Position numbers and translations under genes: made by a program
Shown here: positions 10,381 to 30,773 of the stretch, piece after piece
Position numbering within the stretch: the stretch's first letter is position 1
Layout of the letters: each line of letters starts with the position of its first letter
The notes under the pieces: generated by a model
Database searches by the model: none
Seen by the model: the letters and a program-made list of their open reading frames with translations, nothing else
Told to the model about the DNA's origin: nothing
Assembly: GCF_000175255.2 (NCBI RefSeq)
Contig: NC_017183.1
Span: 284 to 32,283 of the forward strand
DNA: 32,000 bases
Source: Zymomonas mobilis subsp. mobilis ATCC 10988
Lineage (GTDB): Bacteria > Pseudomonadota > Alphaproteobacteria > Sphingomonadales > Sphingomonadaceae
Direction of reading: 5' to 3'

Positions 10381-10383
10381 CCC

Positions 10384-11135: not shown

Positions 11136-11219
11136 TTTATGCAGCCTTGCCCATTGGTAGCTTCCCTCGTTTTCCTGTTAAAATACTCCTTGTTTCTCAA
11201 AAGCTATGTCCTCTTTTTT
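11136..11219. repeat. Long-range inverted repeat, left copy (IR-L)
   Basis: Reverse-complement match to 30690-30773 with about 5 mismatches in 84 bp by hand alignment. Contains two 13-bp direct repeats 23 bp apart (11163-11175 and 11186-11198). Confidence 0.9.
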
Positions 11220-11525
11220 TCGTTCTTCGGATTGTGTTTCATCTGGCTACGAGTAGGTACTTCTTAAAAAGAGGAAATGAGGAAAATTAGACAGGAATAG
11301 TCGTGGGAAGCTGCCGGTAAAAAGGTTCAACCATGCAATTTTGTTCGAGCTGAGAAAGATCAAATATAATATAAATGACCGTATCTATAATTATAAACGG
11401 TGTATGTTAAAAAAAGCCTTGATATCATTATCTCATTTCAGCTCAACAGAAAATCATAATAAAATTTTGTAAGTAAATACTAAATTTTTAGATTATCTAT
11501 CTATATATTCTATAATTATAATTTT

Positions 11526-14500
11526 TTAAGGTCTCATTTTTCTTCTAAGCTCGGTAAACTTAGGATCAGATTTTATACATTCAATATTACTGAGCTTATC
11601 GATTAATTCTCCTATTTTATATCCATAAAATATATCCTGTATATCAGATGGGATAATGACCTGAAGTAACTTAAAAATTTCTTTCGGAAATTTGAGTATG
11701 ATTGTGTCATCCAAACGAGAAAAACAGTTAGCAATTTTCAAGCTATTTTTAATAATAGTTAATCGTGGTGAAATCAGTTGTACTATGTCCGGCATTTTAT
11801 CATCTGCCAATAGCGCGATTTCAATGAGTTCTTCAGATAAAGCTTGGGTTCGAGTTATAAGTTGACGTGGCCAGACTTTATTAAGAAATTCTATAACTTC
11901 TGTCCATTTTTGTTTTTCTTTTGCCCATATCTTGACAGAATTTATTATAGTAATGCGCCCTTTATCATCTGTTTTTATAAGAAAATCACGTAATTCTTCG
12001 TTATTAACTAGCCTGTCTCCTTCTTGATTTAATGATATCCATCCTCTAAATAGCAAGCGCATAACTATGCCATAATTTTTATGATTTTTCTGTGATACTA
12101 AATCGGTTAAAATTATTTTTAGACGAGCAAACAGATCATGGTTCCAGCTAGTATATTGACATGCTGATGAAATAAATGCCCTGGAGGATTCAGAATTAGG
12201 ATTTTGCTCTATCTGTGAAATAATATGCTCATCAGTCCATTGCTTGTCGATAGAATAGATCCGGCCTAGCTTGGTGCCAAATATTGCCATAACACAACAA
12301 AGCGCATCATTCTTTGCTGATATTAGGCAATTAGCACGTGTGTGCCATTCCTCATCTATAGTCTTATTTAAGATTTCATCAATAAGTAATACTGTCATCT
12401 TACCTATAGGAGAGTTTATCGATTTAAATAGCCAGTTTTCTTGTTTTTTATCTACAACTAGAGTTTCTGATTCTGCAAAAGAGATAAGGACAGATTTAAC
12501 TATTCGTTCCCATAATTTTAAGTAGGATTTTTTTGCATCTATAGCCAATGCCCGACCATGTTGTTCCATCCATGATGCAATAGAATCAATGCTGGTATTG
12601 AATACTTCTTCTGATAATGAGTAGATCCGTTCTACAATTAGTATCTTTAGTCTTAGTTTATCTGTACGGCGTGCTTCGTTACAGAGAAACTCTGACCAAT
12701 ATTGCCTACGGGTTTCTCCACGTTTCGCTGCATAAATTAAGGCAGCTAATGCCTTAACGGGGTATTCTTTTGATAATCCTTTAAAGGGGCGCCTTTCTAT
12801 TAAAAAGTCAGGCGATTTTCTTGAAATATCATCAGATTTTTCTAGTATTTTATCAATAGGAATTCCAAATAGTTCTGTAATATCTGTGTCTGTAGCAACA
12901 CAACCGCCGCGTGAACTTGATCTATAAGTATTATCTAGAGCATATTCCGGTGTCCATTCAGGGGTAATTTTACGCAGTTCTAGACGCTTTGTTTCTAAGT
13001 CGAAGCTGACCGTCAATTTTTCTTTTTTAAGCCATTCAAGACGGTTAAGAATCTGACAGGTTCGATATTCTTTATATTGCTGGTCATCGATACCTTTATA
13101 TCGTTTTGGACCGGATAAAATTTTATTTTCAATTTTTTCCCTTGTTTCTTCATCAAACTCGGACCATCGAGTATTAAGTGATACAAGCAAGTCATGCTGA
13201 ATTTGGATATCCCAGAACACATCATTCGATAAATTCAGAATTATGTCACTGGCCTCTTGTTGAGAGGTCAGTCCTGCTTGACCTGTTACCCAGACATATA
13301 AATTTCTAAAAATTTTATCCTCTGAATCTGGCCATTTCCTCCATTCACAGCGCGCTGCCTCTGAATTATGCTCGTATAGCTGTTTTAATTCATTTGCGTA
13401 GTGTCTAATCAAAGAAGATATATTTTCTTCCTCATTATCAGGAATGCTAGCTGGATCGTCATATTCAACGATAGGATGGAGTCTAGGATCAAAATAGCCT
13501 TGATTGTCAATCTCGAGATCTTCGGCTGATTCTAGATAGCTGCGAATTACGCGTATATAACGAACTAAGAATTTTTTCGGGATTTTCATTTCAGTAGGAT
13601 GATTTGGATAAATAACTTTTGCTGAGACGAGATCTTGATGATTTTTTGTATCATCTAGAGGTATTTTTCTTTTGCTTCCCACTGAAATGCGCGGTCGTTT
13701 TAGATTTTCAAATTCGCGCTGTAGCCAAGATGTCCAGCCTTCCTTTTTAGAAAAATAATATAGTTCCCAAAATTTTGAATTACAATTTTCATCCGATGAA
13801 TCTGACTTAGATGACAAGAGTAAATGCCATGCCTGTCTGATAGGACTTTCCATATTTCCATCTATATTGTGAGTTATATTGTTAGTAAGTTCAGAGTGTA
13901 ACCAGTTCTGGCGGCTAGCCCACCATACAGTGATATTTTGATTCACTACGCGGCCAATCCAGTACGCTAATGATTGTAGTCGTGCAGGAAGGTTGTTTCC
14001 TTTATTTCTGAGACTAATAAACAAGTTCTGTTTGTTATTAGATGTTTCTTCAAATGCTGACCATACATTGGAAGGTATTAGATGTTTTTGTGAATTGTCC
14101 TCAGGAAGAGGTCGTGGATCACTATCGAGGCAAAAGTTATTAAAGATCGCTAGGGGATCCAGTATTTCTTCAAATAAATCATGAAGATAATTTTGATTAC
14201 TATATCGAATAAAAGGATCAAAGACACATAGCCATTCCGCCGATGGGGGCGTTGCATGACCTGCAAATTTTTTCGCTCCAGAAGTTGATGACACGACATG
14301 GGCTACCTGTCCTCGTTCGTAAGGATCAAGCTCCCTAGGTTTTTTTAGTGCTTTGTCTGAAATGATAGATTTCTGCCACTCATGTGGATCATTCGCTCTC
14401 TCTCCCCACGCTTTCAGTGATTCCCACAGAGATGGGAAATCTTGATGAGAAATTGCAGTAACTCCCTTGTCCTGCCAGAGAGCGGAGGCTTCATCTTCCT

Positions 14501-15275
14501 TTCCTTGTTGAAAGGTATACAGTCCTCTTGTTTTTGTTGATCCTTTCAAACCTTCAAGCAAATATTGAATCGGAGGATCATCTGCAGAATAACCAACGAA
14601 AACAATCTTATATCTTTCTACGAGAGTCTTCATGAAAGCTGTTGCCCATCCATCAGAGAGATAGGCGCGTCCAAAGTCGGCGGATGAGAGTATAAACTCC
14701 TTTGACGCTGCGTCTGAGTAGTCAGGATTGACCATACCATGCAAATGGATAATCCCTTCCCATTCATCTCTTCTGGGATCTGGCAAATCGGGGGGTGAAA
14801 TTTCGGGGATATCTGGTGCAGCAAGCTGGAATAATCGATCAAAATTTGTTGTAATAAGCCGATGTCGTCCATTCGGCATTTTGGAAAGATTAAATAAAGA
14901 TTTATGAGGATCAAGGCCAGGATTAGAGTTTGGTTTTACTGCCTGTGAAACATCTGATCGTATATCTTCTACCGCAAATTCTTGTTCTAATAATGCAAAA
15001 ATTCTATCAGCGGGAGGTATACCTCCAACGCCGGGTGGGGTTTCTATCTTATCAGAAATTTCTAAAAGCTGTCGAGCTGGACTCGAAGCCGATGATCCAA
15101 GAGAAGAGATAACTCGTTTTGCTAGCTCAGGAAAGCTTAGCCCTCCTGCCTCTTGCATCGATATCCCAGCTCCACAGAAGAATAAAACTTCTCCTTCATC
15201 TCGCGCATAAAGAAGGTCATCTGGTATATCTGGGCCATCAGCAAAAAATCGCATTCTAGATGTTAGCCTAAACAA
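11526..15275 (-). CDS. SIR2-like (SIR2_2-type) N-terminal domain fused to ~950-aa helical C-terminal region; DSR1-like candidate defence protein
   Basis: 1249-aa uninterrupted ORF in very AT-rich DNA. The N-terminal ~250 aa carry FFCGAGIS (aa 32-39), ITTNFDRLF, IIHLHGMV and FVGYSADDPPIQYLL, the motif order of bacterial SIR2_2 NADase domains. The remainder is unrecognised and rich in L/I/K/E/W. Confidence 0.8.
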   Translation of the reverse strand: MFRLTSRMRFFADGPDIPDDLLYARDEGEVLFFCGAGISMQEAGGLSFPELAKRVISSLGSSASSPARQLLEISDKIETPPGVGGIPPADRIFALLEQEFAVEDIRSDVSQAVKPNSNPGLDPHKSLFNLSKMPNGRHRLITTNFDRLFQLAAPDIPEISPPDLPDPRRDEWEGIIHLHGMVNPDYSDAASKEFILSSADFGRAYLSDGWATAFMKTLVERYKIVFVGYSADDPPIQYLLEGLKGSTKTRGLYTFQQGKEDEASALWQDKGVTAISHQDFPSLWESLKAWGERANDPHEWQKSIISDKALKKPRELDPYERGQVAHVVSSTSGAKKFAGHATPPSAEWLCVFDPFIRYSNQNYLHDLFEEILDPLAIFNNFCLDSDPRPLPEDNSQKHLIPSNVWSAFEETSNNKQNLFISLRNKGNNLPARLQSLAYWIGRVVNQNITVWWASRQNWLHSELTNNITHNIDGNMESPIRQAWHLLLSSKSDSSDENCNSKFWELYYFSKKEGWTSWLQREFENLKRPRISVGSKRKIPLDDTKNHQDLVSAKVIYPNHPTEMKIPKKFLVRYIRVIRSYLESAEDLEIDNQGYFDPRLHPIVEYDDPASIPDNEEENISSLIRHYANELKQLYEHNSEAARCEWRKWPDSEDKIFRNLYVWVTGQAGLTSQQEASDIILNLSNDVFWDIQIQHDLLVSLNTRWSEFDEETREKIENKILSGPKRYKGIDDQQYKEYRTCQILNRLEWLKKEKLTVSFDLETKRLELRKITPEWTPEYALDNTYRSSSRGGCVATDTDITELFGIPIDKILEKSDDISRKSPDFLIERRPFKGLSKEYPVKALAALIYAAKRGETRRQYWSEFLCNEARRTDKLRLKILIVERIYSLSEEVFNTSIDSIASWMEQHGRALAIDAKKSYLKLWERIVKSVLISFAESETLVVDKKQENWLFKSINSPIGKMTVLLIDEILNKTIDEEWHTRANCLISAKNDALCCVMAIFGTKLGRIYSIDKQWTDEHIISQIEQNPNSESSRAFISSACQYTSWNHDLFARLKIILTDLVSQKNHKNYGIVMRLLFRGWISLNQEGDRLVNNEELRDFLIKTDDKGRITIINSVKIWAKEKQKWTEVIEFLNKVWPRQLITRTQALSEELIEIALLADDKMPDIVQLISPRLTIIKNSLKIANCFSRLDDTIILKFPKEIFKLLQVIIPSDIQDIFYGYKIGELIDKLSNIECIKSDPKFTELRRKMRP

Positions 15276-15883
15276 TAAGATTAAAATACATTTTAGTTTA
15301 ATATTGAATAACTAAATATTTTTAATTGCATATAGATTTATCATCGTAAATTCAGGAAGGCTGTTAACCAGTCTACAAGTTTTTATAGAAAAAAATTATA
15401 AAATTTAAGTGAGGTAGAAGATAGCAATATATCTGGTACGTCCACGAACGAAGCGTGATCTATCTGCTCTTTCTGGATTGAAGCAGTTTTCCTCCATTGC
15501 AAGCCGTATGATCTGCTGCATAGGATATAAAGCGATCTTCTGGAGTTATGGAAATAACACAAAATGGAGACATCTTCGTGTTGCAGTGGAGGTTTGTTGG
15601 TGATCGAGATGTCTCTCATGAACGCATCTGATCTATATAACTCTCTACATATTCCTGCGAAACAGTGCGATATGCTAGCCACCTGCCAACGATGAGCAGC
15701 TTATCGGTTGAGGTATCTAGCCAAAAATCCTAGGATCTAGATCAAGCAGTAGCGCGCTGTAGCCACTCGATATAAAAAATTGCGACATCATTTCTGGCTT
15801 TTATCCATTTTTTTCCAACCATTTATTCCGTTTCAATTACCATATGGCTTAACTGACGAGGCGTCATCAGATCTGTTGTTTTT

Positions 15884-15901
15884 GTATCTTATTTAAGATA
15901 C
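15884..15901. promoter_or_regulatory. Palindrome GTATCTTA-TT-TAAGATAC upstream of dinJ (candidate TA operator)
   Basis: Perfect 8-bp arms with a 2-bp spacer, ~28 bp upstream of the dinJ ATG. AGGAG RBS at 15918-15922. Confidence 0.45.
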
Positions 15902-15928
15902 AATCTCAATCAAGATAGGAGTCCTCTC

Positions 15929-16207
15929 ATGCCTACAGCAAAAACAATGATACATATTCGGGTCGCAGGTGACCTGAAAGAACAGGTAAGCACTACCCTT
16001 GCCTCTATGGGCTTATCTGTTTCCGAAGCTGTTCGTTTATTCCTACATCGTGTCGTAGCAGAACAAAAATTCCCTTTCGAACTACGTGTCCCGAATGCAG
16101 AAACCCGGCTGGCAATGTCTGAAGCTGATGAAATTATTAAAAGCCACCAAAGTCGTTTTTCTAATTCCAAAGAGTTGATCGATGGCCTTGAAGCGCACAG
16201 CAAATAG
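15929..16207 (+). CDS. dinJ: RelB/DinJ-family antitoxin
   Basis: IHIRVAGDLKEQVSTTLASMGLSVSEAVRLFLHRVVAEQKFPFEL is a typical DinJ RHH N-terminus. Overlaps the toxin gene. Confidence 0.85.
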   Translation: MPTAKTMIHIRVAGDLKEQVSTTLASMGLSVSEAVRLFLHRVVAEQKFPFELRVPNAETRLAMSEADEIIKSHQSRFSNSKELIDGLEAHSK

Positions 16208-16511
16208 TAAGCGTGCTTCTCTACCGAGATCCTCCGATTATACCAAAACCTTCCTAAAGGACTGGAAGCGCTTATCACGATCAGGACGCTACGATCTTAA
16301 TCGTCTAAAGTCAGTCATGATGCTCCTGATTGAGAATGATGAACCCTTGTCCGCTGAATGGTTAGATCATCCTTTAAAGGGTGAAATGGCCGCCTATAGG
16401 GAATGTCATATAGGGGGTGACTTCCTGCTTATTTACAGAATAGACAACAGCCGTCAGCCCGAAATGGTGATCTTCGTACGGGCGGGAACACATTCAGAAC
16501 TCCTAGAATAA
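16182..16511 (+). CDS. yafQ: YafQ/RelE-family mRNA interferase toxin
   Basis: YTKTFLKDWKRL...LIENDEPLSAEWLDHPLKGEMAAYRECHIGGDFLLIYR...FVRAGTHSELL matches the YafQ pattern (DHPL.G....R..H......LIY...GTHS.LF). The start could be ATG 16182 or TTG 16188. Confidence 0.85.
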   Translation: MALKRTANSKRASLPRSSDYTKTFLKDWKRLSRSGRYDLNRLKSVMMLLIENDEPLSAEWLDHPLKGEMAAYRECHIGGDFLLIYRIDNSRQPEMVIFVRAGTHSELLE

Positions 16512-16527
16512 AGGCTTATTTCTTAAA

Positions 16528-16589
16528 ATACGTATCGACGTATATAGCTAAATACGTATTTAAGTTAAAAAGGATTGACGTATGCACGT
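16528..16589. promoter_or_regulatory. ATACGTAT-box array, copy a (upstream of parA)
   Basis: Boxes ATACGTAT 16528-35, ACGTATAT 16538-45 and ATACGTAT 16552-59. The near-palindrome ACGTATATAGCTAAATACGT spans 16538-57. ACGTATGCACGT at 16578-89 overlaps the parA ATG. Preceded by AATAAAGGCTT at 16507. Confidence 0.7.
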
Positions 16590-17205
16590 TATTACGTTTT
16601 TAAGTCAAAAGGGCGGTAGTGGTAAGACAACCCTTTCGGTTCACACGGCTGTGGCAGCAGAGGCTGTCGGCAAGAAAGTCTGCATCATTGATGCTGATCC
16701 TCAAGAGAGTGCAACAACTTGGGGGATGTCTCGGGAAAAGCCGACACCTATCGTAGCTACGGCTCAAGCTAGTGATCTGGATGCCGCCCTTTCGGCAGCT
16801 GAGGCAGAAGGTATAGACTTGGCTATCATTGATGCACCGCCTCATGCCGCTCCTACGGCTAGTCAGATCGCCCGTCGAAGTGATTTTATTCTAGTCCCTA
16901 TTAGACCAAGCGCTTTTGACTTAGCGGCTGTGCCGGCAATTATGGATATTATTAGGGCATCGAAATCGAGAGGCGCTTTCATTCTGTCAGCCTGTCCTTT
17001 CCGTGCTCCAGAGATCGAAGAGACACGCCTTGCTTTAGAAAGCTATAATCTTCCTATTTTTCCATCCGAGATTGTTGACCGTCGCGCTTTTGCTCGCGCA
17101 GTCACCACTGGATGCGCAGTCACAGAATTTGAAAGCAATGGCAAAGCTGCTGAAGAGATCCATCATTTATGGACTTGGATTAATAATACGTTAGAACGTA
17201 TATAG
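16582..17205 (+). CDS. parA: ParA-family partition ATPase (small, type Ib-like)
   Basis: Deviant Walker A SQKGGSGKTT, IIDADPQ, IIDAPP. 207 aa. Confidence 0.9.
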   Translation: MHVITFLSQKGGSGKTTLSVHTAVAAEAVGKKVCIIDADPQESATTWGMSREKPTPIVATAQASDLDAALSAAEAEGIDLAIIDAPPHAAPTASQIARRSDFILVPIRPSAFDLAAVPAIMDIIRASKSRGAFILSACPFRAPEIEETRLALESYNLPIFPSEIVDRRAFARAVTTGCAVTEFESNGKAAEEIHHLWTWINNTLERI

Positions 17206-17221
17206 CTATATACGTATATAC
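17186..17221. promoter_or_regulatory. ATACGTAT-box array, copy b (parA/RHH gene junction)
   Basis: Perfect 20-bp palindrome ACGTATATAGCTATATACGT at 17196-17215, overlapping the parA stop. Flanking ATACGTTA. Followed by AAATAAGGGCTTTTT. Confidence 0.7.
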
Positions 17222-17241
17222 TTAAATAAGGGCTTTTTGCT

Positions 17242-17532
17242 ATGGCCAAGAAACCAACCGGACTAGCTGCTTTTTCCCGCCCTAAAGCGGTTACTCATCT
17301 TTCGACAGATGAGCCCACCTCTACCATCGAAAATCAAACAGCCTTTCCGATGCGCAAGAAAAGAGGATCAGGTGACACCGTTGCTTTAACGGTGAAAGTT
17401 CGCCGCACCGATTGGCAACGATTACGTCAGCTGGCGGATGCAGAGGGAACAACAATTCAAGCTATGGCCGAGGCAGGCTTTTCTGCTATCCTCGCCCAAC
17501 ATGGTTTAGCGTCTCTTAAGACAAGAAAGTAA
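17242..17532 (+). CDS. Putative ribbon-helix-helix partition/regulatory protein (ParG/omega-like)
   Basis: Position immediately after parA. Disordered basic N-terminus, then VALTVKVRRTDWQRLRQLADAEGTTIQAMAEAGFSAIL, a beta-strand + two-helix pattern. Confidence 0.6.
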   Translation: MAKKPTGLAAFSRPKAVTHLSTDEPTSTIENQTAFPMRKKRGSGDTVALTVKVRRTDWQRLRQLADAEGTTIQAMAEAGFSAILAQHGLASLKTRK

Positions 17533-17576
17533 ACGTATCAACGCATATAGCTAAATACGTATTGAGCTATATGCGT
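17533..17576. promoter_or_regulatory. ATACGTAT-box array, copy c (downstream of RHH gene)
   Basis: AACGTATC, ACGCATATAGCTAAATACGT (17541-60) and AGCTATATGCGT (to 17576). Followed by AAATAAAGATTTTTT. Confidence 0.7.
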
Positions 17577-17629
17577 AAATAAAGATTTTTTATATACGAG
17601 ATGTCAATATTCACAGTTCTTGTCTAACA

Positions 17630-18289
17630 TTGCGCATCTGTCTTACTCAGATGAAAAATTGGTTAGAGTCTCATCCTCGTCATATACCGATTTTTGTTAT
17701 GATCGAAGCCAAGGTACAACCTTTGCATTTAAAGCTTGCTAGTAACCCAGCTAAAACCCCAAATTTTTCAAAAATACCGCCCTTCACCGATGAAACTTAT
17801 AACGAAATCGATCAAACTATTGTGGATGTATTAGGTCGAAACAAAGTTATTATCCCCGATGATGTGAGAGGCGGCTATCCTAATTTGGAAGATGCAGTTT
17901 TTGCTGGAAATTGGCCAACACTTGGCCAAGCACGTGGAAAATTTATCTTTTTCTTAACAACAGCGACAGGCCGTGACGGCGTCGCGGCATATCTGAATGG
18001 TCATCCGGGGCTTAAAGGGCGAATGGCATTTATGGATTCCGAACCTGGAAAACCTTATGCCGCTTTTGTTCTTGAAGATAATGCCTTAACCCAGGGAAAT
18101 ATTATTCGGAATGATGTCAAAAAAGGATATATTGTCCGAACCAGAGCCGATATTGATACCTACGAAGCTAAAAAGAATGATCTAACAAGGGGGAAGGCTG
18201 CATTTGATTTTAGCGCTAAAGCGGCTGGCAACGCGGTATGTCGGAAAACCTCTGAGCACAATAAAGGTGCTCGGATTATTTCTCACTAA
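17630..18289 (+). pseudogene. Fragment of a Ca2+-dependent PI-PLC-like phospholipase C (N-terminal half missing)
   Basis: ICLTQMKNWLESHP.HIPIFVMIEAK...GYIVRTRADIDTYEAKKNDLTR resembles the middle and C-terminal part of bacterial PI-PLC-C1-type proteins (from memory). The reading frame opens only at 17579, right at array c. The C-terminal tail is aberrant. Confidence 0.55.
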
Positions 18290-18424
18290 GAAGCGAAAAA
18301 ATAAATATAGCGTTATAATATAACTTTAAATATTAAATGTGATTCCCTGTGAGAAATAATATAATGTATTTTTTAAATGTAAAAAAAGTAATTTTAAAAT
18401 AGATATTCATTTATTAAGTATTTT

Positions 18425-20409: not shown

Positions 20410-20541
20410 GAAATTTTTAACTTTCTAACACTACTAGATCGGAGAGATTTTACTTTGGCCATTTCCACTGGTCGTGTTGCCATAGAAAATAGAGGAAATA
20501 TTGGTGGTTATCTTTGTTCTTTCCAGACCTTAAAAAATTAA

Positions 20542-22066: not shown

Positions 22067-22094
22067 TTTAAATTGATAGCTACGCCCGACCGGA

Positions 22095-23186: not shown

Positions 23187-23295
23187 AGTGTCTTATCTCT
23201 TCTTTATTGAGGAAGCTATTAGGCCGAAATAGTCATCTGTTTTCAATTAGGTAATTATCCATAACGCCTAAAATAAAGGTTTTTTATAAATGGAG

Positions 23296-23359
23296 ATACG
23301 TCTTAACGTATATAGCTAAATACGTATTTAAGTTAATAGCTATATTTGTATTTACGTAT
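23296..23359. promoter_or_regulatory. ATACGTAT-box array, copy f (downstream of darG)
   Basis: ATACGTCT 23296-303, ACGTATATAGCTAAATACGT 23306-25, ATACGTAT 23320-27, TTACGTAT 23352-59. Preceded by AAATAAAGGTTTTTT. Confidence 0.7.
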
Positions 23360-23500
23360 TATGTAGCCTGATGCTACTTATATGATATTCGGTTAGCTGG
23401 GAGAGATAATGTAAAGATACAGCCCGTTATTAACAGAAGGTTGAATGCCAATTTCACAGGAATTGCAGCGGTTAGAAAGAAAAGGGCTTTTGGTTCTTAA

Positions 23501-23764
23501 TTAAAAGAAATCGGGTGGAGGTGCCGGTGCCGGAACAGCATTTGCGTCGAATGCGAACAAGGCAAATTGCAACCAAGAGGGTTCTCGTTTTACTATCCCA
23601 TTTTCAAAGCGAGAAATCGATTGTTGTGTAGTGGTGAAAATAGCACCTCGCTTTTCAGCTTCCTTAGAAACCATATCGGCTAGCTTTTGCGCACTCCATC
23701 CCCTTTTTATCCGAGACGCTCGAACAAACTCGCGGAGCTTATCTAAATCCGTTAAGTTATCCAT
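23501..23764 (-). CDS. Atypical HTH protein, paralogue 3 (HTH only, 87 aa)
   Basis: Shares W[ST]..KLA.(~12 aa).QQSIS.FENG..K..P.W with the two upstream genes. 5-nt gap from paralogue 2. Confidence 0.6.
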   Translation of the reverse strand: MDNLTDLDKLREFVRASRIKRGWSAQKLADMVSKEAEKRGAIFTTTQQSISRFENGIVKREPSWLQFALFAFDANAVPAPAPPPDFF

Positions 23765-23769
23765 CTGGC

Positions 23770-24276
23770 CTATTCGTTGTAAAGCAAAGGGTGAGATAAC
23801 GCGACTGGGAATTTTTTTGCCAGTGAAGATGCAATATTTTGTTTAAGTGACCATGAGTCACTAAAGTCTACATCCAAAGGAACTAATAAACTCAAAAACA
23901 AGTTTTTGAGTTTATCTTCGCTTGGAAGAATTTCTTTATAGATAATTTTTTTATTATCATCTTCTGATATTGTATCAGTCGAAAATTTCGGTTCTTCTTC
24001 TTTTGTGAAAGAAGGTTTAGATACTACAAAATCTGTTAGTTTAGCCTGCTCCAACAAAGCTGCTTTTACATAATTCAGCCACAGAGGTATCGACTTTATT
24101 TTTCCATTTTCAAACAAGGAAATAGATTGCTGTTGTAAATTTAGTTTAACGCCATGACGTGCAGCCACCTGTTTTGCTTCGTCAGCTAACTTTGCTGCCG
24201 TCCAGTTTATACGTTTACGCTCATTTCTTATCCATGTGCGTATTTCGTCTATTTTTGAGATACTGGTCTGCGTCAT
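23770..24276 (-). CDS. Atypical HTH protein, paralogue 2 (168 aa, with conserved C-terminal module)
   Basis: Same N-terminal pattern. C-terminal LPSEDKLKNLFLSLLVPL...IASSLAKKFP aligns with paralogue 1. Confidence 0.6.
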   Translation of the reverse strand: MTQTSISKIDEIRTWIRNERKRINWTAAKLADEAKQVAARHGVKLNLQQQSISLFENGKIKSIPLWLNYVKAALLEQAKLTDFVVSKPSFTKEEEPKFSTDTISEDDNKKIIYKEILPSEDKLKNLFLSLLVPLDVDFSDSWSLKQNIASSLAKKFPVALSHPLLYNE

Positions 24277-24301
24277 AATATCTATTTATACCAAAAAGAT
24301 A

Positions 24302-24751
24302 TTACTGAAACAAACTTATCTGTTCCAAGCCTTTCGGAAGACGTTGCGCTAAAATACTGGCAATTTTTCGTTTTAATTGGGGTGTTATATCTTCCTCTAC
24401 TGGAGTTAAAAGACCCAGAAACAATTTTTTAAGATCTTTTTCTTCCGGAAGGCCGACATTTTTTGATGCATTACATTTTGTTAAGGTAATGGAGTTCATC
24501 GTCGGAGAGATAGGGTTATTCTCAAATGCAGCCATTACATAAGGCATCCATGACGGAATGCTCTTAATTTGCCCAAGTTCAAAGGCAGAAATGGATTGCT
24601 GCTTAAGGTTACTTTCGACGTTTCTTTGTTTTGCAGCCATACGCGCTTCTTCAGCGAGTTTTGTTCGACTCCAGCCTCGTAGCTGTCGTTCTTCAAAAAT
24701 CCACTTACGGAATTTTTCAACAGTTCTCAATTTTGAAGATGCTTCATTCAT
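24302..24751 (-). CDS. Atypical HTH protein, paralogue 1 (149 aa)
   Basis: GWSRTKLAEEA...QQSISAFELGQIKSIPSW. C-terminal LPEEKDLKKLFLGLLTPV...IASILAQRLP. First gene of a three-gene minus-strand operon. Confidence 0.6.
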   Translation of the reverse strand: MNEASSKLRTVEKFRKWIFEERQLRGWSRTKLAEEARMAAKQRNVESNLKQQSISAFELGQIKSIPSWMPYVMAAFENNPISPTMNSITLTKCNASKNVGLPEEKDLKKLFLGLLTPVEEDITPQLKRKIASILAQRLPKGLEQISLFQ

Positions 24752-25031
24752 GCAGCGATTCTACAATTGAATCAGATCTCAAACACCTGAAAAACAATTG
24801 CATAATTTTTTATAAAACTGAAAAATGATTTTTTTATATTGCAAAAAATTGCAAATCATAATATCCACAATAAAATGCAATTTTTTGGATTCGATTTAAC
24901 TATGTTTCTATCTTTAGAGAATTTCTTTCGGCAAGAGTCAATCAAAAATTTGACTGTGGTTTAGGTAAAAAGAAAAAAATCACAATTTTTTGTTGGTTAG
25001 ATACAATTATATACTCAAAAAGGTAGATAAA

Positions 25032-25253
25032 ATGATGGCAAACGAAGGTAAAGATATAAAGCCATCTACCATAATTCTATTTTGCCAACAGTTTGATTTG
25101 AAAAACAATAATCACGATTATTGTTCTCAATTAATAGGCCGTCAATCTCTAAAAATCTTTTTTAAATCTAGCACTAACAAGACAGCCATAGCTTGTCTTT
25201 CATTGGGGCGGCCAGTTTCCCTTCGGGTGAAGAGTAAGATCAATGACAATTAA
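25032..25253 (+). CDS. Hypothetical small protein (73 aa from ATG 25032)
   Basis: AAAGG about 9 nt upstream of ATG 25032. The stop overlaps the next gene's ATG (ATGACAATTAA), suggesting coupling. No recognisable motif. Confidence 0.35.
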   Translation: MMANEGKDIKPSTIILFCQQFDLKNNNHDYCSQLIGRQSLKIFFKSSTNKTAIACLSLGRPVSLRVKSKINDN

Positions 25254-25560
25254 AACAGCCGAAAATATGCCCTCCTTAATTGATGGCGAGATCAGCACAT
25301 TCAAGCAGAAGATTAGCAATGCCATGTATCTTTATATGGGGCAGATGGAATGCGGTCTTCGCCTGTTGATGGATCGCTTGGAAGGTATTCGTCGGGCAGA
25401 AGAGACCCGCTCTTATGCTTTACTGGAAAATGTCTCAAAAGATGAATTAATAAGATTTAATACTGAAATATTAAGTCTTATCGAGGTGATTAAACGTTCG
25501 GCAACTACGGCCAATGAGGGCTTGAACGGCTTTATCCAAAACTTTGGTTCGTCTTTATGA
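25243..25560 (+). CDS. Hypothetical protein (105 aa)
   Basis: ORF with host-like composition, coupled to the upstream small ORF. No recognisable motif. Confidence 0.45.
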   Translation: MTIKTAENMPSLIDGEISTFKQKISNAMYLYMGQMECGLRLLMDRLEGIRRAEETRSYALLENVSKDELIRFNTEILSLIEVIKRSATTANEGLNGFIQNFGSSL

Positions 25561-25684
25561 CCCATTGTTTTTTCAGCCTTTCCTATTTGGAAAAGACCTG
25601 TTCTGTTTCCGTCAGTTCTAACCTTGGGCTTCAGACCGAGGCCTATTCGGCACCCCCTCATCTTCTCATTGGAGAGACCGTCTT

Positions 25685-25936
25685 ATGAGTTCTATTCATG
25701 CGACCGAAGAGCTGACTGAAAAGCTCCAATCCATTATCCGTCTTGAAGAAGAAAAGGCGCGTTTGGATGGCCAGATTGCCGAAGCCTATCGTGATCTGAA
25801 AGGCCAGAAATACGACATCAAGAAGGCCAAGCTTGCGGTCAGCCGTTCGCGGAAAGGTCATCCTGAAAACTCTATTCGTATTCTGATCAACCAGATCGTC
25901 AATGATCGGGCGATGAGCCGGAAGCTTGTCCCGTGA
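25685..25936 (+). CDS. GapR/DUF2312-like small DNA-binding protein
   Basis: GGAGAG RBS 8 nt upstream. LQSIIRLEEEKARLDGQIAEAYRDLKGQKYDIKKAKLAV parallels the GapR pattern L.SII.R.ERLE.EK..I...IKEVYAEAKG.GFDVK.L (from memory). Confidence 0.65.
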   Translation: MSSIHATEELTEKLQSIIRLEEEKARLDGQIAEAYRDLKGQKYDIKKAKLAVSRSRKGHPENSIRILINQIVNDRAMSRKLVP

Positions 25937-25985
25937 TCAGAACCGGCGCAGCCTCTTCCCTTTTATCTATTTCAAATTCAGGCCT

Positions 25986-26018
25986 GCCACAGCGGAGAAT
26001 CTTCGCTGTGGCTTTTTT
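25986..26018 (+). terminator. Rho-independent terminator
   Basis: Stem GCCACAGCG / CGCTGTGGC with a 9-nt loop, followed by TTTTTT. Confidence 0.75.
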
Positions 26019-26042
26019 GCGTCCAAGACCGGAGCCCGCACA

Positions 26043-27800
26043 ATGACCGCCTCTTCTTCTTCATCATCTCATTTCGTGGCGTCGTCTCCTATGGCTCCTT
26101 CACTTAATGCCGATCTGTCCTCTTCTGTGAACCTGTCGGACACCTCTCTTTTTTCTCCAAAGCCTGATCTCGCGCCTGCCCCATTATCCGCTGAGTTGTC
26201 TTCTATGTCGCCTAACCTTGTATCGCCTTTGGAAGCTGCTGACTTATCCTTAGCAATCTCCGCTTCGTCTTCGCCATCCTTGGCTTCTCCATTACGTGCT
26301 ACCATCTTACCAGATTCTTCTACAGCTCCATTACCTTCATCTCCCTCCTCTCTGTCTTTTAAAGGTAGCCCTTTTGTGGACAGGTTAGGCCGTTTCAAGC
26401 GCGGCACTTATCGTTCAATGCTGATGCAGACGGGAATGTCCTACGACCATGCAAAAGACATGGCTGATCTTGCTGCTGAGGAATTTAAAAACGCCAAGAA
26501 AAGGGAGCCTATCGGTGCGACATATGACCACCAATCATCTTCCTTGGCCAATAACGTCGCCCCCGAAATTACGGCCTCAAATACCAATAGTGAGGTTACA
26601 GCCTCCGCATCAGATTTCGACGAAATCGAATATTTTGATCAGATGGTATCAAACGGCGTTGATCCTGAAACCGCTGCCGATATTGCCCGTAAAACAGCTA
26701 TTGCCAGACGTAGAGACCCTCTCGAACGATCCACCCGCTATAAAATCCGCCGTCGGACTCCTGATCCGGTGCATCGGGATTCTTATGAGGTGGGCGAACG
26801 TGAGAAGTCGGTCTGGAAGCCGGTCAATCCGCAAGAGATCGGTGCCTATCTGGAAGCGGTCGATCAATATTCGATCAAAACTAAGGGCTTAAGCGATAAG
26901 GCCGTTCGCCTTCTAAAGATGCTGTTTCGGATGGTCGACTTTAAAACTGGCCGTCTGGAACCGACCCTTGATACTATTTGCGATAGTGTTGGCTATGCCC
27001 GTGCGACGGTCGTCAAATTGCTGCGACAGCTACAGGATTTAGGCTTCATCCGCTGGATACGCCGATCAATTAAGATCAAGGCGGACGGCAAAGGCCCCCG
27101 CCGCAAGCAGACCAGTAATGCCTACGGCTTCTTGTCTCCCAAGTCTTGGCCAGAGTTGGCCAGACAGGTTTTCGAGCGTGTCATGCGTCGGAGGAATACG
27201 CCTGTTCCTGATGATATTGACCACGCCCAAGAGGCGGATAAAGCTGAAACCAAAGCCATAATTGAAAACCTTCCCCCTGTTGAATTCATGAAAGAAATAT
27301 CGGGGGCAAAAGCGCCTAATGCGCTCACAGATTCATTGATACAGTTAGCTAAATCTATCGAGCGGGCAGACCAACTGGAACAAGAAAAACAGGCTAAGAA
27401 GGCAGCACAGGCCGATCAGGAAAAGGTTAAAACATCTTCCAAAACCTCCAAGGAGGATACCTCAAAAAAGCCCCAAATTTCGGACAATCAACGCGAGTTC
27501 AATTCTTATACTCTATCCTGTTATAATTATTTAAATAATACCGGCGCTAAAAAATTTGAAACGACAGAAGAAAATAAAGACTGTCTCGCGCCTGCGTTAG
27601 CAGGAGCGACAGGCGTTATTTTAGACACGAAACCTGAACCTGACCGCTTCACAAAAGAACTTAATACCCTGAACCTCCGGCCTGATCAGGTAGCAACCAT
27701 CATTCAACACAGGAACAAGCGGAGGGAACAGCGCATGATGCCCCTTTCACCAAAAGATATCGCCGACCTCCTCATTAAAACAAGACAGATGCGCCCATGA
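26043..27800 (+). CDS. Putative plasmid replication initiator (winged-HTH type) with S/P/L-rich N-terminal extension
   Basis: ATG 26043 is chosen because the terminator at 25986-26018 lies inside the longer TTG-25926 ORF. Segment LKMLFRMVDFKTGRLEPTLDTICDSVGYARATVVKLLRQLQDLGFIRWIRR is typical of HTH Rep proteins of small alphaproteobacterial plasmids (from memory). Charged K/E/Q-rich C-terminus. Confidence 0.6.
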   Translation: MTASSSSSSHFVASSPMAPSLNADLSSSVNLSDTSLFSPKPDLAPAPLSAELSSMSPNLVSPLEAADLSLAISASSSPSLASPLRATILPDSSTAPLPSSPSSLSFKGSPFVDRLGRFKRGTYRSMLMQTGMSYDHAKDMADLAAEEFKNAKKREPIGATYDHQSSSLANNVAPEITASNTNSEVTASASDFDEIEYFDQMVSNGVDPETAADIARKTAIARRRDPLERSTRYKIRRRTPDPVHRDSYEVGEREKSVWKPVNPQEIGAYLEAVDQYSIKTKGLSDKAVRLLKMLFRMVDFKTGRLEPTLDTICDSVGYARATVVKLLRQLQDLGFIRWIRRSIKIKADGKGPRRKQTSNAYGFLSPKSWPELARQVFERVMRRRNTPVPDDIDHAQEADKAETKAIIENLPPVEFMKEISGAKAPNALTDSLIQLAKSIERADQLEQEKQAKKAAQADQEKVKTSSKTSKEDTSKKPQISDNQREFNSYTLSCYNYLNNTGAKKFETTEENKDCLAPALAGATGVILDTKPEPDRFTKELNTLNLRPDQVATIIQHRNKRREQRMMPLSPKDIADLLIKTRQMRP

Positions 27801-27977
27801 CCCTGTCAGCTATCATTCTGACAGATCACCGTCTATTTATTCCTCCGGTGCTGTTCGCTTCGCTCACAGGCTTGGCGAGAAAGGAATTTGCCTTTCAGTA
27901 GAGCTATCTAATTTCTAAAAATTCGCATTATCGATAATGTAATAAAAAGCTAATTTTTAAAAACCAAATTATAGCGA

Positions 27978-28005
27978 TTACATCAAATCTATGAATGTGT
28001 ATAAT
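27978..28005 (+). promoter_or_regulatory. Sigma70-like promoter for hicAB (TTACAT-16 nt-TATAAT)
   Basis: -35 at 27978-83 and -10 at 28000-05. The hicA ATG lies only 7 nt after the -10 and has no SD, so the mRNA may be leaderless. Confidence 0.4.
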
Positions 28006-28012
28006 ACATAAT

Positions 28013-28162
28013 ATGAAAAGTCGTGATTTGATCAAAGAAGTTGAAAAAGCAGGATGGATACTCGACCGAACACGTGGCTCTCATCATATCACGATACCAC
28101 ATCCTAAAAAGGAACTTGGTGTTGGGCTTGTTCGGGCTATCCGTAAGCAAGCCGGATTGTAG
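28013..28162 (+). CDS. hicA: HicA-family toxin, unusually short (49 aa; probable in-frame internal deletion)
   Basis: Not in the ORF track (under 60 aa). Hand translation: MKSRDLIKEVEKAGWILDRTRGSHHITIPHPKKELGVGLVRAIRKQAGL. It has both family hallmarks, GSHH and (V)PHPKK.L..G....I.KQAGL. About 10 residues usually found between them are absent. Confidence 0.7.
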   Translation: MKSRDLIKEVEKAGWILDRTRGSHHITIPHPKKELGVGLVRAIRKQAGL

Positions 28163-28171
28163 GAGAAGTTT

Positions 28172-28597
28172 ATGCGTTATCCTGTTGCTATAGAGCCAGA
28201 TACAAAATCTACGGCTTTTGGTATTGTCGTACCGGATTTACCCGGTTGCTTCTCGGCTGGCGATACGATGGATGAAGCTATTGCCAATGCTGAAGAAGCC
28301 GCATCTGCTTGGATCGATGCCACATTAGATAGTGGTCAAGATATTCCTGTACCTAGTTCTATCTCAGATTTATATAAGAACCCTGATTATAAAGGATGGT
28401 CTTTCGGTTTTATCAATATAGATCCAGCTTTGTTGAGTGATAGGGTAAAGCGGGTAAACATTACTTTACCTGAAAGAGTTCTCGAACGTCTTGATCTCTT
28501 GGCCAAAAAGGCAGGAGAAACTCGTTCTGGTATGATCGCTTCTTTGACCTTAAAAGCTCAAAAACAAACAGATCATCATTCAGCTGTTATGATCTAA
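28172..28597 (+). CDS. hicB: HicB-family antitoxin with C-terminal RHH
   Basis: MRYPVAIEPD...FGIVVPDLPGCFSAGDTMDEAIANAEEA (HicB RNase-H-like fold start). C-terminal RVNITLPERVLERLDLLAKKAGETRSGMIA (RHH). Confidence 0.85.
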   Translation: MRYPVAIEPDTKSTAFGIVVPDLPGCFSAGDTMDEAIANAEEAASAWIDATLDSGQDIPVPSSISDLYKNPDYKGWSFGFINIDPALLSDRVKRVNITLPERVLERLDLLAKKAGETRSGMIASLTLKAQKQTDHHSAVMI

Positions 28598-28652
28598 CAA
28601 GTAGTAATCCAAATATAGTCCCATATATTTTATAGGGTATGTCGTAAAACCA

Positions 28653-28682
28653 AGAGCGCCGATTATTCGGCGCTCTTTTTTG
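28653..28682 (+). terminator. Rho-independent terminator after hicB
   Basis: Perfect 10-bp stem AGAGCGCCGA / TCGGCGCTCT, loop TTAT, then TTTTT. Confidence 0.85.
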
Positions 28683-28830
28683 TCGTCAAAGTTTTCCGTC
28701 TATTTTTCCTCGATAATTCAGGCCGGAAACGGGCGGTTTCCCTCGCTAGCCAGAAAACACCTGGTTCAGGAACAATAAACAGGGAATACACTCAGCATGA
28801 CTTTTCTGAATGGTACGTACGAACATCTAG

Positions 28831-29566
28831 GTTCTGTTGACAAAGGAAGGCAACCACAATTTTACGGCCGCGATATGAAGGAAGGCGAGGAAAGATTTTC
28901 TGGTTTTGTCATAGCGTGTAGCAATACGTCTGGACGGCTTCAGCTTATTAAACATCCGCTCAATACAATGATGATCTTTGTCGTGCTGGAGATTATAAGG
29001 AATAGGCTTTTTTCGATTGGAACGAGGCGGGATAACAGGAAGAATGCCTCGAAAGGGTAGTTTTTCGCGTAACCTATTTATCAGCAAGAAAACAGCGGGG
29101 CGTTGTCACAGAGATATCTCAGCACCAGAATAATCAGAGACCGCACCACCGGTTAGCGCGAAAGCTAGAGGGCGACCTTGACCATCGGAACGGGCGCGAA
29201 TGATCGTGCTATCTATCATATGTTGCCAGTCATCTGGTCAACCAGGGTTTCAAGAAGAGCGTCCCAGACACCCTGTTCCGACCACCTACGAAACCGAACA
29301 TAGACCGAATTCCATTTCCCATAACGTTCATGCATGTCTCGCCACGGGCAGCCTGTTCGAATCACATGGAGCACATAAAGCATACCATTGAGAAATAACC
29401 GATTACTTTTGGCGGGACGCACGCAGCGGCCTCGTTCGCTGGGAATAAGACCCTCTATTATCTGCCACTCCGCGTCCCTCAGATCTCCTCGCATCCTGTC
29501 TGCCATACAAAACTTGTTCTCAATTTATCTCTAAAAATCTTAAATTACACTCTTTGTCAACAGAAC
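28831..29566 (-). mobile_element. Decayed IS5-family element (736 bp) with intact ends
   Basis: 15-bp terminal inverted repeats GTTCTGTTGACAAAG / CTTTGTCAACAGAAC. CTAG on both flanks (28827-30 and 29567-70). The transposase is in pieces: orfA at 29216-29506; next frame WQHMIDSTIIRARSDGQGRP...; an in-frame TGA; and the LLADxGYDS segment with the second catalytic D appears deleted. The C-terminus IERMFNKLKPSRRIATRYDK is intact. Confidence 0.8.
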
Positions 29567-29736
29567 CTAGTCATCAGCTACCTCTATTAAATAGTAAGCT
29601 ATCACAGCGTGTCCGCTTTGCCGAGAGCGCATTGGATGGCCTGTCGGTATTCGATTATCCAGATAAACGTAATTTTGTGGCTGATGAGATCACAGCCATT
29701 AAAAATGAATTACTTGAGTTAGGGGCTTCATTATGA
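29567..29736 (+). pseudogene. ParA C-terminal remnant (second par locus), interrupted by the IS
   Basis: LPLLNSKLSQRVRFAESALDGLSVFDY...EITAIKNELLEL matches the ParA C-terminus. The frame continues across the IS into 28742-28830, but no Walker motifs remain upstream. Confidence 0.5.
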
Positions 29737-29965
29737 CCAAAACAGCATCTTCAATCAGCTTAACGCGCCCGTCGCGTGCCGTTAAAAAGCCATCTTATGT
29801 TGATCAGTGGGTCGCAAAGTGGAACGCCGATGATAACGCAGAAAAGACAAATCGTTTTTGTCTATACCTGCAGACATTCATAGAAAGCTGAAACTTCAGG
29901 CCATGGATGAAGGGAAAATGATGATCACTCTAGTCCGTGAAATTTTAGCCGAAAAGTTCGTCTAG
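29733..29965 (+). pseudogene. RHH partition-protein gene (ParG-like) with a frameshift
   Basis: ATGA overlap with the parA remnant. Frame 1 stops at 29889-91 after 52 aa. The -1 frame reads SIPADIHRKLKLQAMDEGKMMITLVREILAEKFV*, a typical RHH C-terminus. The indel lies near 29855-29875. Confidence 0.5.
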
Positions 29966-30689
29966 GTTTTGAGAAAATAAGCATTTTTTGCATCTTTTTT
30001 ACGTTTTACAAAATGCGTTGAGCATGCGTTTATTTGCGAACAGTAAAAATGGGCATTTTTCTAAAAAAATTTGTGCTTTAAAGGCTATTTTACGCAATAT
30101 TTTTTATTTTGCGTTGGATCAGAAATTGCGTAGAAAAGCGGCATGTATGGCGCGGAGGCTAGGGTTGGTCTACCGAACGCTAAGGGTATAATAAAAAAAC
30201 ACCTCTCTTGATATTTTTATATCAACTGATGGGTTTTGATACTGCTTCTTTAAAAAGAATTGATCCATTTCATCGGCGATAGTTTAGAGATCTACCTTTC
30301 CGAAAGCCAAAAGCTGCCTATACACCATCAGCCCAGAGATCCCTCTACAGCAAGAAAGAAGGTATATGACCAGTGGACCAAGAAGAGGAAGTATTTTACT
30401 CTGAGAAGACATCCTAATGCTTTTTGGGCTTACAATCTTCTATCCATAAACCTTGACTAAAAATGGATGATGCAGAAGATAGCCTCTATCTCTCCATCTT
30501 CTTCTGTAATGAAGGGCTGATTTACCAAACAGTTAAAGATCCAAACTTCTATCCAGCCTGTATATTCCATTGCATTTCCCTGATCCTTCTTACTAGCTGA
30601 TTGCTATAATTATACCGGTCTTATTTTTCTCAAACTCTCTCTTTTCTAACTCCTCTGCCCATAGCTAACTGAAGCCCAATCCCGAGGAT

Positions 30690-30773
30690 AAAAAAGAGGA
30701 TATAGCTTTTGAGAAACAAGGGGTATTTTAACAGGAAAACAAGGGAAGCTACCAATAGACAAGGCTGCATAAA
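30690..30773. repeat. Long-range inverted repeat, right copy (IR-R)
   Basis: Reverse-complement partner of 11136-11219. Internal direct repeats GAGAAACAAGGGG (30711-23) and GGAAAACAAGGGA (30734-46). Confidence 0.9.

Follow-up and report, generated by a model that had tools for sequence, protein, structure and literature searches.

A probable recombination scar of a repeated non-coding backbone unit forms an 84-bp inverted repeat pair in a Zymomonas mobilis plasmid

The analyzed window, a stretch of 32,000 nt, represents a plasmid of Zymomonas mobilis and is a relative of pZM32. Two inverted arms of 84 nt each, here named IR-L and IR-R, were detected by a repeat search of the window. They are 94% complementary, are separated by 19,470 nt and divide the plasmid into two regions of different composition. 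The region between the repeats (11220-30689) had a GC content of 40.4% vs 53.7% in the other region (31220-32000 plus 1-11125). The GC-rich arm was ~82% identical to Acetobacter plasmids and, judged by its sequence, looks foreign. The features that bear on the repeat pair are listed in Table 1.

Table 1. Features of the window relevant to the inverted repeat pair
Feature	Coordinates	Strand	Remarks
Truncated mrr restriction-endonuclease fragment	10784..11125	+	Abuts IR-L; Pfam Mrr_cat profile positions 3-85 of 115
IR-L, short leftward extension	11124..11135	+	Homologous to first TTATGCA repeat of unit B; sequence and alignment
IR-L core	11136..11219	+	Partial third copy of the unit, profile positions 218-300 of ~305; nhmmer E = 2e-20
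IR-L, diverged spacer-like flank	11220..11330	+	~64-68% identical to the spacer after unit B
Replication initiator, HTH_36-type	25926..27800	+	Pfam and homologue annotation; 2.9 kb from IR-R, 14.7 kb from IR-L
IS5-family transposase remnants	28827..29572	-	Pfam DUF4096 at 29216-29506; homologous to the pZM32 and pZM33 IS5 remnants
parA C-terminal fragment	29569..29712	+	Cut off by IS5 remnant; confirmed, like parG', by comparison with intact homologues
parG-like ribbon-helix-helix pseudogene, frameshifted	29733..29965	+	tblastn with intact 78-aa pZZ6.01 homologue: two frames, 82% and 94% identical
Unit A	29949..30245	-	Diverged direct paralogue 744 bp downstream of unit B; nhmmer E = 4.5e-49
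B-A spacer, ~440 bp	30246..30685	-	TATAAT box; ORFs only short and non-conserved
Unit B	30686..30989	-	~300 bp, non-coding; nhmmer E = 8e-100, alignments, motif counts
IR-R core, 3' third of unit B	30690..30773	-	Repeat search, alignments
Module, far-left part	30990..31219	-	Edge at 31219 common to pZM32, pZZM404, pZM39 and an AN0101 contig (L011)
Tyrosine-recombinase-like pseudogene, integrase-like copy 2	31220..31764	-	Cut at ~residue 189, exactly at module edge; tblastn with copy 1

Both ends of the GC-rich arm are formed by broken genes, as had been proposed from the sequence. On one side the mrr fragment ends directly at IR-L, and the same junction is present in pZM32. On the other side integrase-like copy 2 is cut 447 bp beyond IR-R (originally estimated at ~430 bp). 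By self-BLAST this copy shared 71% nucleotide identity with positions 2905-3305, and neither of the two integrase-like copies matched any Pfam or NCBIfam model. The only transposase sequences that Pfam found in either arm were IS5-family fragments, the second of which (DUF4096) is located at 21017-21418; the original prediction had likewise recognised no transposase that fits the repeats.

Local alignment of IR-L with the reverse complement of IR-R gave 79 identical positions out of 84, with mismatches at 11150, 11152, 11168, 11187 and 11208 and a longest perfect identity of 20 bp. The limits and the number of mismatches thus agree with the earlier hand alignment. In a whole-window self-BLAST the sole long-range inverted match was 11136-11329 vs 30773-30581 (76.9%, E = 5e-35). 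Two 13-bp direct repeats, GAGAAACAAGGGG (30711-30723) and GGAAAACAAGGGA (30734-30746), were located at the predicted distance of 23 bp start-to-start.

Inward of the cores a weaker similarity (22/32 and 48/73 identical) extends to 11329/30581. The predicted inward extension is therefore real, but past ~11330 the alignment scores were not clearly above shuffles, and the further match GACCG..TATAATTATA at 11378-11400 could not be distinguished from chance. Outward, 11124-11143 matched the reverse complement of ~30888-30870 with ~95 bp extra on the right side, as had been described. Four TTATGCA direct repeats lie in this part of the unit, and the offset appears to stem from a deletion between two of them; the short leftward extension of IR-L probably marks this deletion of ~95-110 bp.

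Rather than being an element in its own right, the 84-bp sequence forms the 3' third of an AT-rich non-coding unit of ~300 bp. Unit B, whose end constitutes IR-R, contains in order the hairpin-like GGAGTGGTAGTCCCACC, four TTATGCA, two AAATACGGCC and a core ending in TTTCTCAAAAGC. Unit A terminates in TTTTCTCAAAAC at the parG stop codon. The two units were identical at 192 of 261 positions with an alignment score of 96 compared to 36 +/- 7 for shuffles, which supports their paralogy. Both ends of the unit carry a conserved TCAAAAC-containing sequence. Unit B, the 440-bp spacer and the diverged unit A represent the normal layout, a module of 1.0-1.3 kb that was 85-96% conserved across 42 plasmid records, beside unrelated cargo. 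Three spacer alleles were found, 68-72% identical to one another. IR-L, by comparison with this layout, is an extra, truncated and inverted copy consisting of the last 84 bp of the unit and ~110 bp of diverged spacer. The GC content of the repeats (37-38%) corresponds to the AT-rich Zymomonas backbone, unlike that of the GC-rich arm.

All six reading frames of the module were full of stops, and neither the B spacer nor the flank of IR-L contained a parG or parA remnant; a decayed larger gene was rejected as its origin. A small hydrophobic protein or type I toxin was rejected as well, given that a 46-aa ORF whose start lies in the core is not intact in pZM33, AN0101_c4, pZM32_a and pZA1002. Most changes between the copies of this ORF alter the amino acid. 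A structured RNA was also considered and discarded: no Rfam match reached the gathering score, and the best hit of a permissive search had E = 4.9. Fold z-scores of single sequences against shuffles ranged from -1.2 to +0.8. No tRNA or tmRNA genes were found, and promoter and terminator scans remained at or below chance.

The core was present in 42 PLSDB plasmid records, every one from Zymomonas. It occurred once in 26 of these, while eight pZM33-type records carried a second, direct copy and eight pZM32-type records an inverted pair. The extra inverted partial copy, IR-L, was restricted to the pZM32-type plasmids. In a profile search units B and A were found together at every module-bearing locus except that of pZA1002 (B only), with IR-L as a partial third copy. 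Outside Zymomonas no copies were detected: among 185,579 species genomes (GTDB) only Z. mobilis AN0101 matched, and metagenome and viral contig collections yielded no core. The window is colinear with pZM32, including the mrr'-IR-L-SIR2 junction. In pZZM405 and pZYMOP02 the module has the opposite orientation with respect to rep or parG, and rearrangements at the module are therefore common.

This distribution bears on the proposal that the repeats are the ends of a large transposable or captured element which brought in one of the two arms. The foreign composition of the Acetobacter-like GC-rich arm and the broken genes at both of its ends would fit such an element. However, the repeats belong to the AT-rich backbone both in composition and in occurrence, beside unrelated cargo on the 42 records, being partnerless on 26 of them and having a direct partner alone on eight more. 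The junctions also lie at different points within the unit, one at the left edge of the module (31219) and the other ~18 bp before the first TTATGCA. No target-site duplication was found in the sequence outside both arms, where the T-run side is homologous spacer (64-68%) and the other side is unrelated. None of the IS5 fragments is tied to the 84-bp ends. We consider ends of this kind extremely unlikely.

The two arms are copies of one piece of the ~300-bp non-coding unit that belongs to the backbone of Z. mobilis plasmids of 30-44 kb. In our view the pair probably marks the joints left by old recombination events in a plasmid of mosaic structure. According to this model IR-L would be a scar between two module-bearing plasmid backbones. 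A cointegrate may have formed first and then undergone deletions. One crossover would have taken place near the T-run at 11219, and the deletion between TTATGCA repeats at 11143. The outcome would be the joining of an Acetobacter-like GC-rich arm with integrase-like genes, type I restriction-modification and mrr to the AT-rich backbone, which carries rep, par and the defence genes. This recombination history is a reconstruction, and no intermediate plasmid was found.

Identity changes in steps at IR-L alone, from 34% in the left flank to 94% in the core and 64% in the right flank. Among eleven B-type copies the core (83-99%) was not conserved above the left (86-96%) or the right flank (61-98%). 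As the step is confined to IR-L, a mosaic of two unit alleles is suggested for it rather than a special function of the 84 bp. Alternatively, the drop from 94% to 64% exactly at the limits of the 84 bp may be due to purifying selection, acting on a putative site of protein binding or on a putative promoter (TGTTAAAAT, resembling an extended -10 box), in which case IR-L would be functional and not a scar. The core would then be a cis-acting site under selection in both copies, either as a platform for a shared protein of the host or of a plasmid, or as an extended -10 promoter for a short transcript. Several observations agree with this: the identity is held over exactly 84 bp, TAAAAT is retained in most copies, the motif GRAAACAAGGGR gave 5 matches vs 0.54 expected, and two or three ACAAGG-containing repeats lie ~two helical turns apart as a possible binding platform. 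A host-factor site shared by co-resident plasmids also causes no incompatibility. Against it stands, besides the equal conservation of the flanks in the B-type copies, that the core is only 70% identical in unit A of pZM33 and that in pomaceae its conservation is plainly below that of the left flank. Furthermore, CAAAAC replaces TAAAAT in pZM32 copy b, the paralogue unit A lacks the 13-mers, and no gene follows downstream, the 46-aa ORF having stops and frameshifts in several copies. RNA folds were not better than shuffles, and the alifold consensus structure of 13 units reached only -5.9 kcal/mol. Selection on the core is thus a possible but unlikely explanation.

The inverted geometry, dividing the circle into two arms, had also led to the suggestion of a segment inversion, that is a working switch in which homologous or site-specific recombination flips the 19.5-kb arm as in the yeast 2-micron plasmid. 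Tyrosine-recombinase-like genes are located nearby, and in the course of evolution the module has come to lie in different orientations on different plasmids. The minimum usually quoted for efficient RecA-dependent exchange in E. coli is ~23-27 bp; the 20 bp of longest perfect identity count against this route, for which the pair would at best be a very poor substrate. Regarding a site-specific system, recombinase-like copy 2 is truncated and neither copy matches a profile; no intact recombinase was found, and no serine recombinase among the ORFs scanned. A single flank combination is common to the window and the eight pZM32-type records, all of them colinear across both junctions, no record carried the recombinant mrr'-core-B-spacer junction, and most plasmids lack an inverted partner. 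Inversion is formally possible, but it found no support and is very improbable.

A further proposal treated the 13-mers as iterons or secondary Rep binding sites that form a second origin or a handcuffing site. Two similar 13-mers 23 bp apart in each arm are in line with this. Shared iterons, however, render plasmids incompatible. Cores 92-99% identical to IR-R are present on pZM32, pZM33 and pZM39, which are stably held together in strain ZM4 (PMC5930841), and the iteron reading is therefore disfavoured. The core is lacking from p29191_2, pZYMOP01 and pZA1001 despite their related rep regions, and a 2-kb fragment of p29191_2 is reported to support replication of a shuttle vector (PMC10832546). 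Near rep the motif was not found; each arm holds only two 13-mers, both arms are far from rep (Table 1), and the 13-mers are absent from unit A. Paired Rep sites are accordingly hardly credible. Immediately upstream of the rep operon, an AT-rich repeat region at 24763-24992 makes a more plausible origin candidate than the 13-mers.

Unit A abuts the parG' stop codon (29965), which places the module just downstream of a decayed type Ib parA-parG operon. The combination of parG and unit A is kept in pZZ6.01 and pZYMOP02. AYGCA boxes are clustered in both units at 5-6 times background with irregular spacing. AAATACG boxes, likewise irregularly spaced, number 11 in total, where 0.45 would be expected, and the intact par region contains them as well. 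Since these box arrays adjoin parG, their position and motif content suggest that the ~300-bp unit most likely served as the region acting in cis in a partition cassette which has since decayed. Today the unit is presumably inert or bound only by shared host factors. Two observations count against a link to partition: active centromeres as similar as the units on co-resident plasmids would make these plasmids incompatible, and the par genes beside unit A are pseudogenes.

More speculatively, the ~300-bp unit might be a new cis-acting site, recognised by a protein of the host or of a plasmid, that serves as the preferred crossover point when accessory blocks are swapped among co-resident Zymomonas plasmids; we regard this as quite improbable. 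If true, the unit would correspond in function to pdif modules but depend on another recombination machinery, and IR-L and IR-R would be two live sites bracketing the defence/restriction arm. A Xer/dif site itself was sought and rejected. The Xer/dif-type consensus has 11-bp arms, GCGCATAA and TTATGTTAAAT, as an imperfect palindrome with a spacer of 6-8 bp; the dif-like pattern GCGCATAA-N6-TTATGTTAAAT gave 0 matches when as many as 3 mismatches were permitted. For CATAA-N6-TTATG, 1 mismatch being permitted, one match was obtained outside the module compared to 1.6 expected, which is chance level.

The result is a corrective one, in that a striking inverted pair turns out to be a backbone repeat of a plasmid family for which no new mobile element or switch is needed. 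The conserved non-coding module, which adjoins decayed partition genes and occurs on most 30-44 kb plasmids, is likely a hot spot of plasmid-plasmid recombination. Z. mobilis is an industrial ethanol producer whose native plasmids serve as vectors and integration platforms, and the design of stable constructs should take the module into account. Should the unit prove to be active, Zymomonas would possess in it a new determinant of maintenance or recombination.

Compared with known systems, the pair resembles the repeats of the yeast 2-micron plasmid (599 bp, with FRT sites, flipped by Flp) in splitting a small circular replicon into two unique arms. It differs in the lack of a dedicated recombinase, a length of only 84 bp with identity runs of at most 20 bp, and no sign of two isomers. 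The direct 13-mers ~two helical turns apart recall the iterons of theta-replicating plasmids (F, R6K, pPS10), but here they are only two, far from rep, common to compatible plasmids and absent from plasmids with related rep regions. With the type Ib centromeres parH of TP228 and parC1/parC2 of pB171 par2 the units share non-coding arrays of short boxes beside a small parA and a ribbon-helix-helix parG/parB, as well as two related sites in direct orientation. In the window, however, the adjacent par genes are pseudogenes and the boxes are irregularly spaced, and near-identical units occur on compatible co-resident plasmids.

The pdif modules of Acinetobacter plasmids (inverted XerC/XerD sites) are similar in being short conserved sequences on many plasmids of one genus that border exchangeable accessory blocks, and one Zymomonas pair is in inverted orientation as well; the 28-bp Xer-type site is absent here and the breakpoints lie at no one fixed position. 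In comparison with scars and duplicated segments in mosaic plasmids of multi-plasmid hosts, which arise when a cointegrate forms and then undergoes deletion, intermediate plasmids were not recovered, and for the ~300-bp unit and the B-spacer-A arrangement we found no description in the Zymomonas papers searched. The features shared with such scars are the partial, diverged backbone copies at joints between blocks of differing origin and composition, the broken genes at these joints and the presence of the same segment on co-resident plasmids.

The original prediction of a near-identical inverted repeat of 84 nt at IR-L and IR-R (the left and right arms of the pair; see table) was correct: 79 of 84 positions were identical in inverted orientation, with 19,470 nt between the arms. 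The mismatches at 11150, 11152, 11168, 11187 and 11208 limit the longest perfectly identical run between the arms to 20 bp. In a self-comparison of the window the inverted match extended to 11329/30581 (77%, E = 5e-35) and no other long-range inverted match was found, and the pair is no chance match. The proposed outward similarity was likewise located, at 11124-11143. As described, broken genes lie outside the pair: mrr' stops at 11125 beside IR-L (Pfam Mrr_cat, profile positions 3-85 of 115) and the second integrase-like copy is cut at 31220. The difference in composition between the AT-rich and the GC-rich arm of the replicon amounted to 40.4% versus 53.7% GC.

Comparison between plasmids indicated that the core, i.e. 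the 84 bp of each repeat, belongs to a larger block. A block of 1.0-1.3 kb surrounding IR-R (31219 to 29964) shared 85-96% identity between plasmids and contained no ORF of at least 80 codons. Self-alignment of this block revealed two paralogous units, here named B and A, in direct orientation and 744 bp apart. They were identical at 192 of 261 aligned positions (alignment score 96 versus 36 +/- 7 for shuffles) and both had a TCAAAAC-containing start and a TTTCTCAAAA(C/G)C end. IR-R represents the 3' third of unit B. According to a unit profile search both units were present on all loci carrying the module (unit B, spacer and unit A) with the exception of pZA1002, which had unit B only, and IR-L, both here and on pZM32, was a partial third copy (profile positions 218-300). 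It resembles a unit shortened by a deletion of roughly 95-110 bp from one TTATGCA repeat to another.

The neighbours of the module on other plasmids were unrelated (autotransporter, hsdR, RND pump, cas3) and its orientation relative to rep or parG varied. In the pZM33 locus (3757-4088 and 4508-4792) unit B had an internal duplication of roughly 56 bp. Unit A of this plasmid was far less diverged from B (70%) than unit A of other plasmids and the core was therefore still recognisable there (70% identity). In pZYMOP02 of subsp. pomaceae the two units were found in opposite orientations.

The core was present in 42 plasmid records, all from Zymomonas, with 92-99% identity apart from a partial match in pZA1002 (67 bp, 91%). 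Z. mobilis AN0101 was the sole match when one genome per species was scanned for the core pattern, and none was found in metagenome and viral collections. On pZM32 the two cores lie at 32405-32488 and 19286-19369, on pZM39 the core lies at 32016-32099 and on pZM33 at 21517-21600. The closest PLSDB relative of the window plasmid was pZM32 of strain ZM4. Both were colinear in the restriction-modification arm, the mrr'-IR-L-SIR2 junction, the par and rep regions and the surroundings of IR-R; other cargo differed. No PLSDB record covered most of the window, so the plasmid itself is absent from that database.

Between IR-L and IR-R the core was 94% identical, the left flank 34% and the right flank 64%, a pattern for which selection on the 84 bp is the main rival explanation. 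Eleven B-type copies compared with IR-R gave 83-99% for the core, 86-96% for the left and 61-98% for the right flank, and in the pomaceae copy the left flank was clearly better conserved than the 5' half of the core. By these alignments the core is not favoured over its flanks in diverged copies and stands out in IR-L only. The spacer occurred as three alleles (IR-R type, pZA1002 type and IR-L type) with 68-72% mutual identity, the switch lying at core position 67 in pZA1002 and 84 in IR-L. We read this as a mosaic produced by recombination between unit alleles.

No Rfam family, significant fold, conserved consensus structure or Xer-type site was found, and stops occurred throughout all frames of the module. 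A 46-aa hydrophobic ORF starting in the core was rejected as a small protein, not being conserved. An extended -10-like TGTTAAAAT was present in most copies, lost in pZM32 copy b and followed by no gene.

The end of unit A coincides with the stop codon of parG', a frameshifted ribbon-helix-helix gene preceded by parA'. In pZZ6.01 a 78-aa parG homologue, annotated as intact, is followed by unit A, and the same arrangement was seen in pZYMOP02. There, the C-terminal end of parA was fused in frame to parG (1162-1461 of that locus), resulting in a 99-aa ORF. Since unit A adjoins these remnants, we regard the module as the sequence downstream of a type Ib partition cassette, a cassette decayed in all plasmids examined. 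Both units contained clusters of AYGCA boxes, at a density five to six times that of the window on average. Additionally, unit B contained two AAATACGGCC boxes similar to the AAATACGTAT box, which occurs nine times around the intact parA-parG and darG (together 11 matches versus 0.45 expected). Our best guess, held with low confidence, is that the unit is a relic partition-site region. The nine exact AAATACGTAT boxes alone compare with 0.45 matches expected for the searched pattern. Imperfect palindromes of AAATACGTAT and ATAGCT boxes bracket the parA-parG operon and darG. These palindromes are likely either operators or centromere sites for ParG, or else a small regulatory element present in several copies. 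The intact ParG is encoded at 17242-17532.

Anti-phage defence genes occur at high density on the plasmid. Upstream of darG, the counterpart of 21463-22082 in pZZM405 was no more than 73% identical, and the DarT (DUF4433) partner seems to be degraded in the window.

Features of the window plasmid and their positions
Feature	Position (strand)	Remarks
IR-L	11136-11219	partial third unit copy
IR-R	30690-30773	within unit B
Unit B	30989-30686	about 300 bp, paralogue of unit A
Unit A	30245-29949	about 300 bp, paralogue of unit B
parG'	29733-29965	adjoins unit A
parA'	29569-29712	last 50 or so codons of parA, before parG'; cut by IS5 remnant
AAATACGTAT/ATAGCT palindromes	16525-16565, 17196-17224, 17552-17589, 20539-20583, 22035-22070, 23297-23361	
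Dsr1-type SIR2 protein	11526-15275 (-)	E = 1e-74
Septu PtuA/PtuB pair	18425-20409 (+)	E = 3e-142 and 4.5e-55
DarG macro-domain antitoxin	22095-23186 (+)	E = 1e-124
Type I restriction-modification system	4283-10380 (+)	
Acetobacter-like segments of GC-rich arm	2274-3944, 4292-9668	80-83% DNA identity to plasmids of Acetobacter species
Integrase-like gene, two direct copies	2556-3446 (-), 31220-31764 (-)	63-71% identical
500-aa ORF	611-2113 (+)	weak metallo-beta-lactamase-fold match; weak matches to defence-associated MBL proteins (LmuA, Avs1a, RT-associated MBL)
AT-rich direct-repeat region	24763-24992	several imperfect repeats (ACAATTG..., TTTTTTATA...)

The original prediction offered three readings of the pair, the first being the ends of a large captured element. 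One part of it held: the GC-rich arm ends in broken genes and is plausibly foreign. Its restriction-modification genes shared 82.7% identity with an Acetobacter vaccinii plasmid, and several Acetobacter plasmids matched its integrase-like region at 80-83%. The repeats, however, are unlikely to be its ends. They have backbone composition, are unpaired on most plasmids, meet the GC-rich arm at non-equivalent unit positions and are accompanied by neither target duplications nor a matching transposase. The Acetobacter species concerned occur in vinegar, fruit and the fly gut; the likeness of this arm suggests that genes have moved between Zymomonas and acetic acid bacteria living in common sugary niches. 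Relatives of the integrase-like copies carry the annotation tyrosine recombinase or DUF6538 protein, and neither copy, the second being truncated, matched a Pfam or NCBIfam model.

Segment inversion as an active switch is opposed by identity runs of at most 20 bp, the lack of an intact recombinase and a single isomer in 9/9 sequenced relatives; rare RecA events between the arms may occur. The two 13-mers spaced 23 bp apart, which had suggested paired Rep/iteron sites, were confirmed. Against such a role, they were missing from unit A and the motif was not found near rep. Furthermore, three plasmids bearing near-identical cores coexist in ZM4 (PMC5930841) and the core is missing from plasmids whose rep regions are related, among them p29191_2, from which a 2-kb fragment replicates as a shuttle vector (PMC10832546). 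For the replication origin, the AT-rich repeats just upstream of the operon ending in gapR and rep are a stronger candidate than the inverted pair.

The best explanation for the pair is one backbone repeat plus one truncated relic of it, both placed where recombination joined the parts of a mosaic plasmid. No description of the unit of about 300 bp was found in the Zymomonas literature searched, and its interest for vector design and for the biology of Zymomonas plasmids is modest; as plasmid evolution goes, the finding is ordinary.
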